DNA from: a virus | Taxonomy: Duplodnaviria; Heunggongvirae; Uroviricota; Caudoviricetes | Virus record (IMG/VR): IMGVR_UViG_2684622582_000005 | Coordinates: 1 to 8,016 of that record | Strand: one strand, 5' to 3' | Length of the DNA stretch: 8,016 nucleotides | Shown: one piece after another, positions 1 to 6,036 of the stretch | Position numbering within the stretch: position 1 is the first letter of the stretch | Layout of the letters: each line of letters opens with the position of its first letter | Position numbers and translations under genes: made by a program | The notes under the pieces: generated by a model | Database searches by the model: none | Told to the model about the DNA's origin: nothing | The model's input: the letters and a program-made list of their open reading frames with translations, nothing else

Positions 1-1284
1 CTACTTTTTCGCCTCTGCAACCACTTTGCTACCCACGCCGCGGTTATTGTATTCCCACATGCGGTTGTAGTTAGTGTCATTCAGATTGCGCTGTACTTCG
101 TCGTTATCATCAACGTTGCCAGTATTACCCGCAAACGGACGATTGGAAATCACCGCATCGGCCCACGGTTTCGCCGTGTTAAAACCTTCGTTGATGGCGC
201 TATCACGGATCACTACCTGACCGTTGGTATTGGCATCAACATCCAGCGAGCGGCCCAGTTGCGCCACGCCATCACCGGAAGCATTGAAACGGCTGTTTAC
301 GGCGAGGAAACCGTAGTAAATGTTGGACAGCGTAGCCGGTGCAAACACATACGCTTCTTGCTGGGTACGGGAGTTCACCACGCGGAATTCGGTGTTATCG
401 AACACCACTGCGCCGCGACCAGAAACGATATCCACATCCCCTTCAATATAGCTGTTGGTCACCAGCGTACGCGGCTGACGATTCGTTTCCAGACGGTTCT
501 GCACACCGCTGTTGGTGACAAAGAAGGTGTTCTGACGACCGAGAATGTTGACGTTATTGATCTGCACTTTGTCGCCATCAGTACGCAGTGCCACCGCCGG
601 ATGGTTACCCGCATCTACGCTATCGCCCAGCGTGTTTTCGATGGTCAGGTTTTGCAGTTGCAGGCCATTGTTTTGTGACCAGAAGACCGCAGAGCAGAGA
701 ACACCGATACTGTCGCTGCGTTTACTCTGGCAGCTATCGTACATATACCACGCCGGTTTACCTGGCATATATTTGCCGCGCGGGTTGACGTCGTGACGCC
801 AGTCGGCAGGGCTCATGCCACCATCAAGGGAAAGCCCAATCTTCACATCAATCGGTTTTTCACCTGTACCGTATAGAGTAATTCCACCCGGAGCGGCAGG
901 GACATACACCGTTCCCTGATACTCACCAGGCATCACGGCAATATACTGGCGCTTGTTGGTACGCTTGATAATTGCCGCATCTACCGCCGCCTGAATCGTG
1001 GTATGCGTTACACCTTGAGTACCCGCCGGGCCGACAACAAAGTCAGGTTGCGCAGGCAGGGTAATCGGGGAAGGATTCCACGCTGCCGCACCTGGTGTCA
1101 GGGATGCAAAATAGTGTTGAGCATCGAAATTCTGCGCTTCTTTTGCCGACAGAATCGGGCGCGAAGAGGTACCAGGCGCGGTTTGATCAGAAGGACGTTG
1201 ATCGGGCGGTGTTGAGCTACAGGCGGTCAGCGTCACGCCAAAAGCCAATGCCAGCGCCAGACGGGAAACTGAAAATGTGTTCAC
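1..1284 (-). CDS. ybhC: YbhC, putative outer-membrane lipoprotein (pectinesterase-like / acyl-CoA thioesterase family); host gene flanking attB-lambda
   Basis: 427-aa ORF spanning 1..1284 on the minus strand. N-terminus MNTFSVSRLALALAFGVTLTAC has a signal peptide and lipobox (LTAC). Length and sequence match my memory of E. coli YbhC, the gene on the gal side of attB-lambda. Start ATG at 1284, stop at 1..3. Confidence 0.9.
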   Translation of the reverse strand: MNTFSVSRLALALAFGVTLTACSSTPPDQRPSDQTAPGTSSRPILSAKEAQNFDAQHYFASLTPGAAAWNPSPITLPAQPDFVVGPAGTQGVTHTTIQAAVDAAIIKRTNKRQYIAVMPGEYQGTVYVPAAPGGITLYGTGEKPIDVKIGLSLDGGMSPADWRHDVNPRGKYMPGKPAWYMYDSCQSKRSDSIGVLCSAVFWSQNNGLQLQNLTIENTLGDSVDAGNHPAVALRTDGDKVQINNVNILGRQNTFFVTNSGVQNRLETNRQPRTLVTNSYIEGDVDIVSGRGAVVFDNTEFRVVNSRTQQEAYVFAPATLSNIYYGFLAVNSRFNASGDGVAQLGRSLDVDANTNGQVVIRDSAINEGFNTAKPWADAVISNRPFAGNTGNVDDNDEVQRNLNDTNYNRMWEYNNRGVGSKVVAEAKK

Positions 1285-1315: not shown

Positions 1316-1421
1316 AATCCGTTGAAGCCTGCTTTTTTATACTAAGTTGGCATTATAAAAAAGCATTGCTTATCAATTTGTTGCAACGAACAGGTCACTA
1401 TTAGTCAAAATAAAATCATTA
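1316..1421. other. attL: attL (B-O-P') of lambda-type site-specific integration; 15-bp core at 1331..1345
   Basis: Host-side B arm TTGAAGCCT, then core GCTTTTTTATACTAA (1331..1345), then P'-arm sequence GTTGGCATTATAAAAAAGCATTGCTTATCAATTTGTTGCAACGAACAGGTCACTAT... as in lambda attP, running directly into the int stop codon. Confidence 0.88.
1371..1421. promoter_or_regulatory. P'-arm protein-binding sites: IHF H' site (TATCAATTTGTTG, 1371..1383) and three tandem Int arm-type sites (about 1391..1421)
   Basis: TATCAATTTGTTG fits the IHF consensus WATCAANNNNTTR. CAGGTCACTAT / TAGTCAAAAT / AAATCATTAT resemble the Int arm-type consensus (C/A)AGTCACTAT and sit where P'1-P'3 lie in lambda. Confidence 0.7.
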
Positions 1422-2345
1422 TTTGATTTCAATTTTGTCCCACTCCCTGCCTCTGTCATCACGATACTGTGATGCCATGGTGTCCGACTTATGCCCGAGA
1501 AGATGTTGAGCAAACTTATCGCTTATCTGCTTCTCATAGAGTCTTGCAGACAAACTGCGCAACTCGTGAAAGGTAGGCGGATCCCCTTCGAAGGAAAGAC
1601 CTGATGCTTTTCGTGCGCGCATAAAATACTTTACACCTGTTTTGCTTTGCTCGACATAAAGATATCCATCTACGATATCAGACCACTTCATTTCGCATAA
1701 ATCACCAACTCGCTGCCCGGTAACAACAGCCAGTTCCATTGCAAGTCTGAGCCAACATGGTGATGATTCTGCTGCTTGATAAATTTTCAGGTATTCGTCA
1801 GCCGTAAGTCTTGATCTCCTTACCTCTGATTTTGCAGCGCGAGTGGCAGCGACCGGGTTTATTGTTATATGGCCTTCAGCTATTGCCTCTCGGAATGCAT
1901 CGCTCAGTGTTGATCTGATTAACTTGGCTGACGCCGCTTTGCCCTCGTCTATGTATCCATTGAGCATTGCCGCAATTTCTTTTGTGGTGATGTCTTCAAG
2001 TGGAGCATCAGGCAGCCCCCTCCTTATTGCTTTAATTTTGCTCATGTAATTTATGAGTGTCTTCTGCTTGATTCCTCTGCTGGCGAGGATTTTTTCGTAG
2101 CGATCAAGCCATGAATGTAACGTAACAGAATTATCACTGTTGATTCTCGCTGTCAGAGGCTTGTGTTTGTGTCCTGAAAATAACTCAATGTTGGCCTGTA
2201 TTGCTTCAGTGATTGCTATCCTCCTGTCTCGGCCTAAACCAAACTCTTTACCCGTCCTTGGGTCCCTGTAGCAGTAATATCCATTGTTTCTTATATAAAG
2301 GTTAGGGGGTAAATCCCGGCGCTCATGACTTCGCCTTCTTCCCAT
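1419..2345 (-). CDS. int: Lambda-type tyrosine integrase Int with an in-frame 48-residue internal deletion (308 aa instead of 356 aa); probably inactive
   Basis: N-terminus MGRRRSHERRDLPPNLYIRNNGYYCYRDPRTGKEFGLGRD and C-terminus ...LLGHKSDTMASQYRDDRGREWDKIEIK match lambda Int. The residue count places R212 and K235 at their lambda positions and maps H260/R263/H285/Y294 onto lambda H308/R311/H333/Y342, which fits a loss of residues 240-287. The lambda BamHI site (GGATCC, about 1580) is retained. Confidence 0.88.
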   Translation of the reverse strand: MGRRRSHERRDLPPNLYIRNNGYYCYRDPRTGKEFGLGRDRRIAITEAIQANIELFSGHKHKPLTARINSDNSVTLHSWLDRYEKILASRGIKQKTLINYMSKIKAIRRGLPDAPLEDITTKEIAAMLNGYIDEGKAASAKLIRSTLSDAFREAIAEGHITINPVAATRAAKSEVRRSRLTADEYLKIYQAAESSPCWLRLAMELAVVTGQRVGDLCEMKWSDIVDGYLYVEQSKTGVKYFMRARKASGLSFEGDPPTFHELRSLSARLYEKQISDKFAQHLLGHKSDTMASQYRDDRGREWDKIEIK

Positions 2346-2541
2346 TTCTGATCCTCTTCAAAAGGCTACCTGTTACTGGTCGATTTAAGTCAACCTTTAC
2401 CGCTGATTCGTGGAACAGATACTCTCTTCCATCCTTAACTGGAGGAGGGAATATCCTGCATTCGCGCACCCATCGACGAACTGTTTCAAGGCTTCTTGGG
2501 CGTCGCTGGCGAGCGTTCCACTCCTGAAGTGTCAAGTACAT
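2323..2541 (-). CDS. xis: Excisionase Xis (72 aa)
   Basis: MYLTLQEWNARQRRPRSLETVRRWVRECRIFPPPVKDGREYLFHESAVKVDLNRPVTGSLLKRIRNGKKAKS matches lambda Xis. ATG at 2541; the 3' end overlaps the int start by 23 nt. The 102-aa ORF in the track is an upstream extension in the same frame. Confidence 0.92.
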   Translation of the reverse strand: MYLTLQEWNARQRRPRSLETVRRWVRECRIFPPPVKDGREYLFHESAVKVDLNRPVTGSLLKRIRNGKKAKS

Positions 2542-2562
2542 CGCAAAGTCTCCGCAATTACA

Positions 2563-2589
2563 CGCAAGAAAAAGCCGCATTGATGCGGC
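2563..2589 (-). terminator. Predicted rho-independent terminator (minus strand) between the 114-aa ORF and xis
   Basis: Read on the minus strand: GCCGCATCAATGCGGC (perfect 6-bp stem, 4-nt loop) followed by TTTTTCTTG. Confidence 0.6.
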
Positions 2590-2658
2590 GATGGTAGGTC
2601 TGGATATCATTGAGCAATGAACAGGCCTCATCGAGTGTGAGGCGGTGTTATTTCATGG

Positions 2659-3003
2659 TTAGTCCTTGCGTAGCTCGCTGATTCTTCTGTAAGTCTCTGG
2701 TGCTTTGTTTCCGTGTATCTTCATTTCAGACTTCAACAGAGCAACGAGGGAATCCCATTCGTTGAGGATTCCTTTGAATGCCGGAACGCGCTTTGCAACC
2801 TTGTTGAATGAATCTCTGATTTCTGGAATCTGCTCAACAAGTGCAACGCATCGTCTGAAATCGGCTGCGTCATGGGGAGCGCCGAAGTGATGACCATAGA
2901 TATTCTTTTTCAGTCCACATGCGATTGAGGCAAGAGTTGCGCTACTGATGCCAACATCGCCAGTCGATTGCCATTTCAAAACCTTCATAGCCAAATCTGA
3001 CAT
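2659..3003 (-). CDS. Hypothetical protein, 114 aa; unrecognised accessory gene immediately upstream of xis
   Basis: Intact ORF with ATG at 3003, preceded by GGAGA 6 nt upstream. Co-oriented with the operon. I do not recognise a family from the sequence (MSDLAMKVLKWQSTGDVGISS...YGHHFGAPHDAADFRRC...RRISELRKD). Confidence 0.6.
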   Translation of the reverse strand: MSDLAMKVLKWQSTGDVGISSATLASIACGLKKNIYGHHFGAPHDAADFRRCVALVEQIPEIRDSFNKVAKRVPAFKGILNEWDSLVALLKSEMKIHGNKAPETYRRISELRKD

Positions 3004-3016
3004 TTCTTGTCTCCAA

Positions 3017-3039
3017 TAAAAAAACCGCCATCAGGCGGC
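3017..3039 (-). terminator. Predicted rho-independent terminator (minus strand) downstream of the 59-aa zinc-ribbon gene
   Basis: Read on the minus strand: GCCGCC-TGAT-GGCGG hairpin followed by TTTTTTTA. It ends about 14 nt before the ATG of the 114-aa ORF. Confidence 0.65.
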
Positions 3040-3104
3040 TTGGTGTTCTTTCAGTTCTTCAATTCGAATATTGGTTACATTGTTTTCATATATGAATAAA
3101 TAAA

Positions 3105-3284
3105 TTAGCTTTTTTCGTTGCCTTCGCGTTCTTTATTAATTTTGACAAAATCGTTTTTACCACGCTCTCCAAATGCGTCTTTAGAGTCGTTGTATCCGCA
3201 ATCGCAGCACACATAATCATCAGACCATCCACGCATTGTTTTTTCTTTTGCAATATTTCCAGAACCGCATTTTGGACAAGACAT
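3105..3284 (-). CDS. Small zinc-ribbon protein (59 aa), CPKCG...CCDCG; possible Ea8.5-like
   Basis: ATG at 3284 preceded by GGAGG with a 7-nt spacer; product MSCPKCGSGNIAKEKTMRGWSDDYVCCDCGYNDSK... The track's 70-aa version starts at an upstream TTG with no obvious RBS. Two CxxC pairs; paralogous in pattern to the 65-aa ORF at 4457..4654. Confidence 0.55.
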   Translation of the reverse strand: MSCPKCGSGNIAKEKTMRGWSDDYVCCDCGYNDSKDAFGERGKNDFVKINKEREGNEKS

Positions 3285-3380
3285 ATCACTACCTCCAAAG
3301 CATGAGAGAGATGACAACGTAACATTGATTGGAGATTAACAATAGATTGCTGATGTAAAAGATATGTATAAGCTTAGCTA

Positions 3381-4169
3381 TCAAAGGGGAGGTTCTGGTA
3401 GTTGCATCCAGTCGGTTACATTGCGACTCTGTGTTTCGAAAAATTCATCACCATTGCGGACAATATCGAAAAACTCTCCGTCTCGATATTGCGCATAAAG
3501 AACGAATGCGCCATCACATAAAATAATTACGTGCTGACCATCATCTGGCATTCGCTCACTACAGCTTATCCAACCATCCGGAGTTACCGGATAGTTGCCC
3601 GATAGTGCATTCTGCTCCAGTGATGCTTTTACAAAACACGCGGCCTGAACTATTACGTCATGAATCCAGCGCAAATCAGCATCGCGATCTTTCTTTTTCA
3701 TTTTTTCGCCACTTAAAGCCTGGCTTATGTGGCTGCGTACCAGGTCTTCATGTAACGCCTTCGCATCCTCAATGGTGAAACCACCAGGCAGGCGAGCCGG
3801 GGTTACATGAGGGTTGCCTTCCCCCTGACTCTGAAGCATGGTGGCGCGGCAGGCGTTCCAGCCTTCATCAAAACCGACTATGCCATTATTTAAAGACGGA
3901 CGAGCATCTGGCACCACCAGTACTGGCTTGGCTATATATAGCGGCTGAACATACCAACCCTTTGATAACCAACTGTCAGCAATGTTTTTACTCCTCGTTA
4001 TTGCCGGAATACCTAAGCCATTGTCTGAATGAAGCCACGCCACCGGCTCTGCTTCCAGCGATGCCAGAGCAATTTCATAAGCCCGACGCTCAATATTGTC
4101 TCGGACGTCCAGGCTGCCTATGCGCTCTTTGATTTCTTTAATCAGTTCTTTGTCGGTGAAAGTGGTCAT
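3381..4169 (-). CDS. Ea22-like protein with a DUF551-like C-terminal region (262 aa)
   Basis: Likely start is ATG at 4169 (MTTFTDKELIKEIK...), with RBS AAGGAGAG and stop-start coupling (TGAtATG) to the upstream ORF. The C-terminus (...WISCSERMPDDGQHVIILCDG...VTDWMQLPEPPL) resembles the W...PEPP ending I associate with DUF551 prophage proteins. The track's 292-aa version extends upstream across the neighbouring ORF. Confidence 0.65.
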   Translation of the reverse strand: MTTFTDKELIKEIKERIGSLDVRDNIERRAYEIALASLEAEPVAWLHSDNGLGIPAITRSKNIADSWLSKGWYVQPLYIAKPVLVVPDARPSLNNGIVGFDEGWNACRATMLQSQGEGNPHVTPARLPGGFTIEDAKALHEDLVRSHISQALSGEKMKKKDRDADLRWIHDVIVQAACFVKASLEQNALSGNYPVTPDGWISCSERMPDDGQHVIILCDGAFVLYAQYRDGEFFDIVRNGDEFFETQSRNVTDWMQLPEPPL

Positions 4170-4182
4170 ATCACTCTCCTTT
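4167..4182. repeat. 16-nt junction repeat CATATCACTCTCCTTT (copy 1) at the Ea22-like stop / downstream-gene start
   Basis: Identical 16-mer at 4167..4182 and 4652..4667. On the minus strand it reads AAAGGAGAGTGATATG, i.e. RBS plus TGA stop plus ATG start. A degenerate third copy (CATATCACTACCTCC) lies at 3282..3296. Confidence 0.85.
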
Positions 4183-4446
4183 TCCCTGAAGCATAGCCGC
4201 GCGGCAGGCATTCCAGCCTGTAGTGTAATATTGCGCATCATGCCAGCTCGTTTGTACATTTGAGTACGCTTTTTCCTCTGTCATCGGCTCGGGTATTGAT
4301 GGCGCTTGCTTTGCTTCCAGTGATGCCAGTGCAATCCGTGCCAGTTCTTCCGCTTCTTCTGCTGGCAGTACAACGTTGCTACCCGGTCCGTATGTTTCTC
4401 GCCACTGCTTGATTGTCAGCAGTCGATCTTTGGTAATAGTGGTCAT
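4171..4446 (-). CDS. Hypothetical protein (91 aa); truncated paralog of the N-terminal module of the 262-aa Ea22-like protein
   Basis: MTTITKDRL... parallels MTTFTDKEL...; shares the IALASLEA and GWNACRA(A/T)MLQ segments with the 262-aa protein. Ends ...KGE with TGA one nt before the next ATG. Confidence 0.5.
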   Translation of the reverse strand: MTTITKDRLLTIKQWRETYGPGSNVVLPAEEAEELARIALASLEAKQAPSIPEPMTEEKAYSNVQTSWHDAQYYTTGWNACRAAMLQGKGE

Positions 4447-5353: not shown

Positions 5354-5375
5354 TAAAAAAGGAGCCTGTAGCTCC
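5354..5375 (-). terminator. Predicted rho-independent terminator (minus strand) between the orf61-like gene and orf73
   Basis: Read on the minus strand: GGAGC-TACAG-GCTCC hairpin followed by TTTTTTAT, about 22 nt downstream of the orf61-like stop. Confidence 0.6.
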
Positions 5376-5397
5376 CTGATGATTTTGCTTTTCATGT

Positions 5398-5881: not shown

Positions 5882-6036
5882 ACCGCCTCCCGTTTATTAT
5901 TTATCTTCTCAGCCAGCCGCTGTGCTTTCAGTGGATTTCTGATAACAGAAAGGCCGGGAAATACCCAGCCTCGCTTTGTAACGGAGTAGACGAAAGTGAT
6001 CGCGCCTACCCGGATATTATCGTGAGGATGCGTCAT
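5854..6036 (-). CDS. orf60a: Orf60a (60 aa), exo-xis region protein
   Basis: Start at the ATG overlapping the exo stop (ATGA at 6033..6036) gives the 60-aa product [40 protein letters not shown]... The track's 62-aa version starts 2 codons upstream. Confidence 0.8.

Follow-up and report, generated by a model that had tools for sequence, protein, structure and literature searches.

ORF114, an accessory gene next to xis in lambdoid prophages, is most likely an optional delayed-early pL gene whose flanking terminators double as recombination joints

The genes between exo and xis of phage lambda (orf60a, orf63, orf61, orf73, ea22, ea8.5 and orf55) are small, dispensable and poorly characterised, and they are reported to be expressed early (PMC8614690). 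ORF114, the gene considered here, shares all of these traits of size, dispensability, scant characterisation and place between exo and xis; unlike them, it is absent from lambda, is unrelated in sequence to Ea8.5 and Orf55, and belongs to a family that extends far beyond the lambdoid phages. The review of the exo-xis region just cited does not cover it. The gene and its flanking terminator are already known, in the sense that GenBank entries for phage 434 have included both for decades: in record M60848 the gene is named ORF114 (protein AAA67902) and lies between ORF55 and the annotated terminator t'I, with another terminator, tL4, annotated upstream of ORF55. In the complete 434 genome (OL657226) the same gene is CPT_434_33, and in HK022 it is gp32 (HK022_32), annotated as 'N15 early protein homolog'. 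Literature searches on ORF114 and 434, on the phage 434 genome, on PHROG 1229 and on the HK022 locus tags returned nothing relevant. A second kind of described system with which the locus has to be compared is the moron, of which HK97 gp15 is an example among those of HK97 and HK022, and which is characterised by a promoter and terminator of its own, a GC content out of line with its surroundings and expression while the prophage is repressed (PMC3594210).

The stretch of DNA that we analysed (the window, 8,016 nucleotides) is the left end (int-xis-...-exo-bet-gam) of a prophage of lambda type that occupies attB-lambda. The gene ybhC (1..1284) adjoins the prophage, and beyond it lie the core of the lambda attachment site (GCTTTTTTATACTAA, 1331..1345), the lambda-type integrase gene int (1419..2345, minus strand) and xis (2323..2541, minus strand), which codes for 72 amino acids. 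A frame of 102 aa at 2323..2631 in the program's list of open reading frames was rejected as a gene, since it is xis with a spurious upstream start: the Pfam match (PF07825 Exc, E = 1e-40) covers residues 31-102 of the long frame, and match and alignment agree on the ATG at 2541 as the true start. ORF114 follows at 2659..3003 (minus strand, ATG start, 114 aa). Upstream of it the window carries only the last 48 nt of a lambda-type orf55 (3031..3078, minus strand; blastn aligns orf55 positions 121-168 only), joined to the gene for a Zn-ribbon protein that RefSeq names 'Eag protein' (3105..3317, minus strand); this neighbour lies outside the cassette and defines a mosaic joint. Further along the minus strand come a gene for a DUF551 protein, several small open reading frames, and then exo, bet and gam. 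The initial annotation had taken the neighbour for an ea8.5-like gene and had stated that in lambda such a gene is followed by xis after a short spacer. Neither statement survives, since BLASTP gives zero alignment between the neighbour and lambda Ea8.5, and lambda has orf55 between ea8.5 and xis. The Eag-like protein itself gives weak Pfam matches to Lar (restriction alleviation) and to HVO_2753-type Zn ribbons.

The closest relatives of the locus are those of 434 and HK022. The region is about 95-96% identical to them in DNA and the ORF114 protein 97% identical, the gene occupies the same slot between orf55 and t'I/xis, and its ribosome-binding site and flanking hairpins are as in the window. 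The differences are that in the window orf55 is cut to its last 48 nt, with the eag-like Zn-ribbon gene in its place, and that the Int of the window prophage has an in-frame deletion of 48 aa. This integrase is 99% identical to lambda Int apart from the missing residues (240-287 in lambda numbering), which belong to the catalytic domain, and given this deletion the prophage may be unable to excise.

As a sequence feature ORF114 is ordinary, being present in about one sixth of complete E. coli genomes (963/5,426), where it is named hypothetical protein in every case. Its region is matched in 211 phage records by megablast, the exact protein of the window occurs in at least 1,000 contigs, copies of the gene number 353 in IMG/VR and 1,246 in E. 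coli, and the family profile phrog_1229 matches it over its full length (E = 1.1e-51; residues 1-114 against positions 1-113 of 116). Had the frame been neither conserved nor under purifying selection, the initial annotation would have fallen with it; instead ORF114 is conserved with a dN/dS of about 0.12 over 14 alleles, and 23 of its 40 variable sites are third codon positions. ORF114 is a real gene under purifying selection. It also has a Shine-Dalgarno sequence, GGAG (3011..3014, minus strand), which lies within the recurring linker TTTTAT(T)GGAGA, and a ribosome-binding site is annotated at the equivalent position of 434. Many database entries are chimeras of half of ORF114 with fragments of Ea22, Kil, ERF or DUF550 (dATP/dGTP pyrophosphohydrolase), which suggests that in decaying prophages deletion or recombination has broken the gene internally.

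That the 114-aa frame is bracketed by two hairpin/T-run elements, as first described, is confirmed, with the elements placed at 3018..3041 and 2569..2589 on the minus strand. The upstream, terminator-like element consists of the stem-loop AAGCCGCC-TGAT-GGCGGTTT at 3022..3041 and a U-run to 3018; it folds at -13.2 kcal/mol (z = -2.7), and the stop codon of the orf55 remnant sits in its loop. The downstream element is the hairpin GCCGCATCAATGCGGC with its T-run, that is, the stem-loop GCCGCA-TCAA-TGCGGC at 2574..2589 and the T-run at 2569..2573, with a fold of -10.5 kcal/mol (z = -1.8). This second element is a known one, because record OL657226 of 434 annotates an identical element as terminator t'I and cites PMID 6305007 for it. 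Like the annotated t'I it is a GC-rich hairpin with a T-run lying immediately upstream of the CII site/pI and xis; it abuts the CII site/-35 of pI, after which comes the ribosome-binding site of xis. The window as a whole holds 18 terminator-like sites, against 9.4 +/- 2.7 in shuffled sequence, and the two that flank ORF114 are among the best on the minus strand.

Both flanking hairpins are conserved in 434 and HK022, the 434 copy of the upstream one having a stem mismatch. In a further sample of 80 IMG/VR loci that carry ORF114 at 98% identity or more, a hairpin stands ahead of the gene, before its ribosome-binding site, in 77, and one follows the gene in 62; in one IMG/VR locus the two sides of the t'I stem have changed in a compensatory way (GCTGC/GCAGC). 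Just past the ORF114 stop codon lies a third hairpin that is conserved, GCCTCACACTCGATGAGGC (2625..2643, minus strand; -9.9 kcal/mol, z = -3.0), which has no T-run and is found in 39/80 of the ORF114 loci. It could be an element of RNA processing or stability.

How this arrangement compares with that of lambda can be read from a four-way alignment of the window with lambda, 434 and HK022. At the slot lambda reads CACCAAGCCGCCTGATGGCGG joined to TTTTTTCTTGCGTGTAATTGCGG, which leads on to the ATG of xis, whereas the window, 434 and HK022 have about 480 bp more, running from TTTTTTTATTGGAGACAAGAA-ATG through ORF114 and its TAA to GCCGCATCAATGCGGC. The alignment places this difference exactly between CCGCCTGATGGCGG and the TTTTTCTTGCG T-run. 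Because the extra bases lie between lambda's hairpin and lambda's T-run, the two hairpins of the window are the edges of the indel, the upstream element being its left edge and t'I its right edge. The upstream hairpin is in fact the stem of lambda's t'I and overlaps the orf55 stop codon, so that the single t'I of lambda is made of the left hairpin and the right T-run; the two sides share the microhomology GCGG(C)TTTTT. Lambda's t'I thus differs from that of the window and 434 in that another hairpin, the one at the orf55 end, is joined to the same T-run, and since lambda uses this other hairpin, the phages with ORF114 carry both halves of lambda's t'I as two separate hairpin/T-run elements.

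We surveyed the slot with an exact 32-mer that spans from the T-run to the xis ATG, which recovered 119 IMG/VR loci. In 92 of these the slot is empty, as in lambda, and in the other 27 it holds ORF114; a third state, or other cargo in the slot adjoining xis, was not found among the 119. The view that ORF114 is DNA additional to lambda, in a mosaic region, and an accessory gene that is either present or absent, is therefore supported by both alignment and survey, and the idea that the gene might alternate with other cargo at this place is not, since these loci are either empty or carry ORF114. Where enough flanking sequence is available, 77 loci have orf55 only, 10 have ORF114 only and 8 have both. 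The joint between eag and the orf55 remnant occurs in five loci without ORF114 and in one, of the window type, with it. Its occurrence in both backgrounds shows that the joining of eag to the orf55 remnant and the indel of ORF114 are independent events.

The upstream side of ORF114 has a second form. In phages that lack orf55, the gene is preceded by the leader hairpin of orf55, CTCGCTACGGCGGG-TTTTGTTTTATGGAGA, and the two meet within the shared TTTTAT(T)GGAGA linker, which holds the ribosome-binding site. Among the 80 further loci the upstream hairpin is of the orf55-end type in 48 and of the orf55-leader type in 32, and both of these alternative linkers consist of a hairpin, a T-run and GGAGA. 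On the strength of the slot survey, we regard the distal pL operon as a string of small cassettes, with hairpin/T-run/RBS linkers as the mosaic joints between them, and the locus as a worked example of how terminator-hairpin/RBS linkers may serve as joints for the gain and loss of cassettes in lambdoid early operons.

How would a gene placed between two terminators be expressed? The genes gam, bet, exo, ORF114, xis and int all lie on the minus strand, ORF114 between exo and xis, with no divergent gene intervening. A consensus scan, of a kind that would miss weak or activator-dependent promoters, found no sigma-70-like promoter on the minus strand between 3000 and 3400, and from the upstream T-run to the ORF114 ATG there are 18 nt only, within which the ribosome-binding site has to fit. 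The CII-binding site TTGC-N6-TTGC at the -35 of pI (2554..2567, minus strand) is intact and identical to the sequence annotated in 434, and it lies downstream of ORF114, so that pI transcripts exclude the gene.

The explanation that we favour, and to which we assign as a whole a probability of about 0.65, is that ORF114 is an optional cassette of one gene that closes the accessory part of the leftward early (pL) operon, at its distal end and next to xis-int. Because the gene has no promoter of its own that we could find and sits between two terminator-type hairpins, only early transcription that has been antiterminated, by RNA polymerase that started at pL and was modified by N or put, should reach it, along with xis and int. 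Transcription without antitermination would stop ahead of the gene, which would then be silent in the lysogen, and the CII-activated pI transcript, starting downstream, would leave it out. The hairpin/T-run/RBS linkers would have a second role, in offering short homologies for gain or loss of the cassette. The product is a small, basic, all-alpha globular protein that would act early in lytic growth or induction on a host or nucleic-acid target, possibly in host takeover, anti-defence or support of recombination. On this evidence ORF114 is most likely an optional delayed-early pL gene, with flanking terminators that double as recombination joints.

The contexts in which more distant homologs are found fit such an early role. 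Homologs lie in early regions, often near recombination genes. In a Mannheimia phage the homolog precedes xis/int and has an annotated terminator on either side; in the P22-like Salmonella phage SPN9CC a 62%-identical homolog is the last gene before int and has the same double-hairpin leader ahead of it; and in a Burkholderia prophage the homolog stands two genes ahead of an HTH_17 excisionase and an integrase. Mu-like phages carry homologs in their early regions, the 9NA-like phage Solent has one in its early region with a terminator after it, and in the virulent Vibrio podophage 252E42.2 a terminator and then a sigma-70 promoter matching at 11/12 positions lie directly upstream of the homolog. 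Judged from these genomes, the presence of homologs in virulent podophages and in 9NA-like and Mu-like early regions points to a probable role in early lytic growth over one in lysogenic conversion.

The protein family is large. An exhaustive profile search returned 2,799 clusters at 50% identity with E <= 1e-3, of which 633 reach E <= 1e-10, and most members are stand-alone proteins of 105-140 aa; where N- or C-terminal extensions occur, clustering shows them to be heterogeneous. With tblastn, homologs appear in 279 phage records, including Vibrio podophages, P22-like phages, the 9NA-like Solent, Yersinia and Mannheimia phages, the Mu-like SuMu, and Arthrobacter and Clavibacter phages. The AlphaFold (AF2) model of ORF114 is confident (pLDDT 93.2, pTM 0.86) and all-alpha, with seven helices. 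Across 82 distant members, at 30-45% identity, the residues S20, P43, D45, D48, R51, C52 and W83 are invariant, all of them present in the window protein, and W11, G18, S21, L55 and P60 are nearly so.

The early statement that the protein could not be assigned to a family holds as far as known function is concerned, since Pfam, NCBIfam and PADLOC give no family of known function and PHROG 1229, into which the protein falls, is itself a family of unknown function. PADLOC's models of defence proteins give zero families at E <= 1. For the 82 distant members, Pfam gives no match and PHROGs only families of unknown function; a PDB sequence search, run with the single protein and with the profile, gives no match, and no structural neighbour of the model was found in the PDB. 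A BFVD search returned uncharacterised family members only, among them a giant-virus relative, and the source records of family members name all of them 'hypothetical' or 'prophage protein'. The profile and structure searches that the initial annotation had proposed thus turned up no well-characterised phage protein. A family so abundant and conserved, with neither a Pfam model nor a solved structure nor a function, is a reasonable low-cost target for study.

These properties could be read more boldly. ORF114 would then be the founding member of a very large family of phage early proteins, spanning about 2,800 clusters at 50% identity in phages of Proteobacteria, actinophages and a giant virus, with a previously unseen all-alpha fold, an invariant Ser/Asp/Asp/Arg/Cys/Trp set and a specific conserved activity, for example in anti-defence, in host takeover or as a general cofactor of prophage excision. 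We put this forward tentatively, as a conjunction that is on balance improbable; if true, the conserved activity would account for the retention of ORF114 as the gene that adjoins xis/int in at least six unrelated modules.

A narrower alternative concerns the kind of molecule only, namely that the protein is a small enzyme or a specific binder of a ligand or nucleic acid, not a stoichiometric inhibitor of a host protein. In its favour are the seven residues that stay invariant across 82 sequences at such low identity, the net charge of about +5 and the pI of 9.4. However, matches to an enzyme or binding fold were not found, and in the model S20/S21 and D45/D48 stand at helix N-termini, where they may be structural caps. 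The fusions bear on the question in the same divided way. One distant member of 558 aa has an ORF114-like domain C-terminal to a PolyA_pol head, an RNA-binding and an HD domain (a CCA-adding-type enzyme), and Agrobacterium and metagenomes contain tandem two-domain versions of about 250 aa, which favours the enzyme or binder; the CCA-adding-enzyme fusion, though, is a single metagenomic protein that may be a gene-calling artefact, Pfam on ten long family members found nothing beyond it, and the other fusions are heterogeneous. Taken together this makes the alternative unlikely. The tandem versions, as a separate matter, hint that a dimer may be the acting form of the single-domain protein.

The place of ORF114 just upstream of xis invites a different explanation, that the protein is an accessory or regulator of site-specific recombination, in excision or integration. 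In the 80 IMG/VR loci, an ORF114 of at least 98% identity is followed directly by genes of six types, namely lambda Xis, a 66-aa HTH protein, a 63-aa AlpA-like protein, an HTH_17 excisionase (as in mEp043), a DUF1233 excisionase, or the integrase directly. Moreover, the distant homologs in the Mannheimia phage, SPN9CC and the Burkholderia prophage adjoin xis/int as well, and the gene would share the pL transcript with xis and int but be absent from the int-only pI transcript. Yet lambda and 92/119 related loci have the same xis-int and manage without ORF114, and homologs occur in phages without an integrase (Vibrio podophages, Solent, Mu-like phages). The partner excisionases, furthermore, are mutually unrelated, and a specific protein partner is therefore unlikely. 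The fixed position is equally well explained if the gene is the conserved flank of an int-xis module that is often exchanged, and to judge by the six downstream types this is how ORF114 appears to behave. A dedicated function in recombination is thus quite doubtful, and we return to the optional delayed-early pL gene as the preferred account.

The initial annotation had called the layout typical of moron genes, a label that stands in part. ORF114 is an accessory cassette of extra DNA relative to close relatives, an indel of about 480 bp carried by 27/119 loci, and it is bracketed by hairpins; like the morons of HK97 and HK022 it is a single small gene, and a hairpin/T-run follows it. It differs from them in having no promoter of its own in the scan above, in a terminator placed before it, in lying in the early and not the late operon, in its homologs in virulent phages and in its GC content, which is ordinary (46.4% for ORF114, against 48.9% for xis, 45.3% for int and 47.5% for the prophage part of the window). 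The terminator ahead of the gene would keep transcription out of ORF114 instead of driving it. The downstream one is the known t'I, which insulates the pI/xis-int unit, and may not be private to the gene; it accompanies ORF114 in many loci and is missing in 18/80. The interpretation is thus partly supported, for an accessory cassette and not for an autonomous unit. More generally, a gene bracketed by terminators is not automatically a moron, and the layout of ORF114 predicts silence in the lysogen. That ORF114 is a true moron, autonomous, expressed from the repressed prophage and of benefit to the lysogen (e.g. in superinfection exclusion or defence), is very improbable, for what speaks for it, namely the extra DNA relative to lambda in a mosaic region, the flanking terminator-like hairpins and the great frequency of the gene in E. 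coli prophages, stands against a missing promoter-like site with only those 18 nt to hold one, unremarkable GC, co-orientation inside the pL operon, zero PADLOC matches, homologs in virulent phages and Mu-like early regions, and failure under the definition in PMC3594210.

Two observations concern the remainder of the operon. The DUF551 frame (292 aa, 3381..4259, minus strand), the RefSeq counterpart of which is a dATP/dGTP pyrophosphohydrolase-domain or DUF551 protein, overlaps a 91-aa frame (4171..4446, minus strand) by about 90 nt, and both carry the motif 'IALASLEA' close to the N-terminus, suggestive of duplicated or mosaic modules of the Ea type. Two more strong terminator-like hairpins lie on the pL-operon strand, at 5950..5972 and 5359..5377 (both minus), as would be expected if tL-type terminators were strung along the operon.
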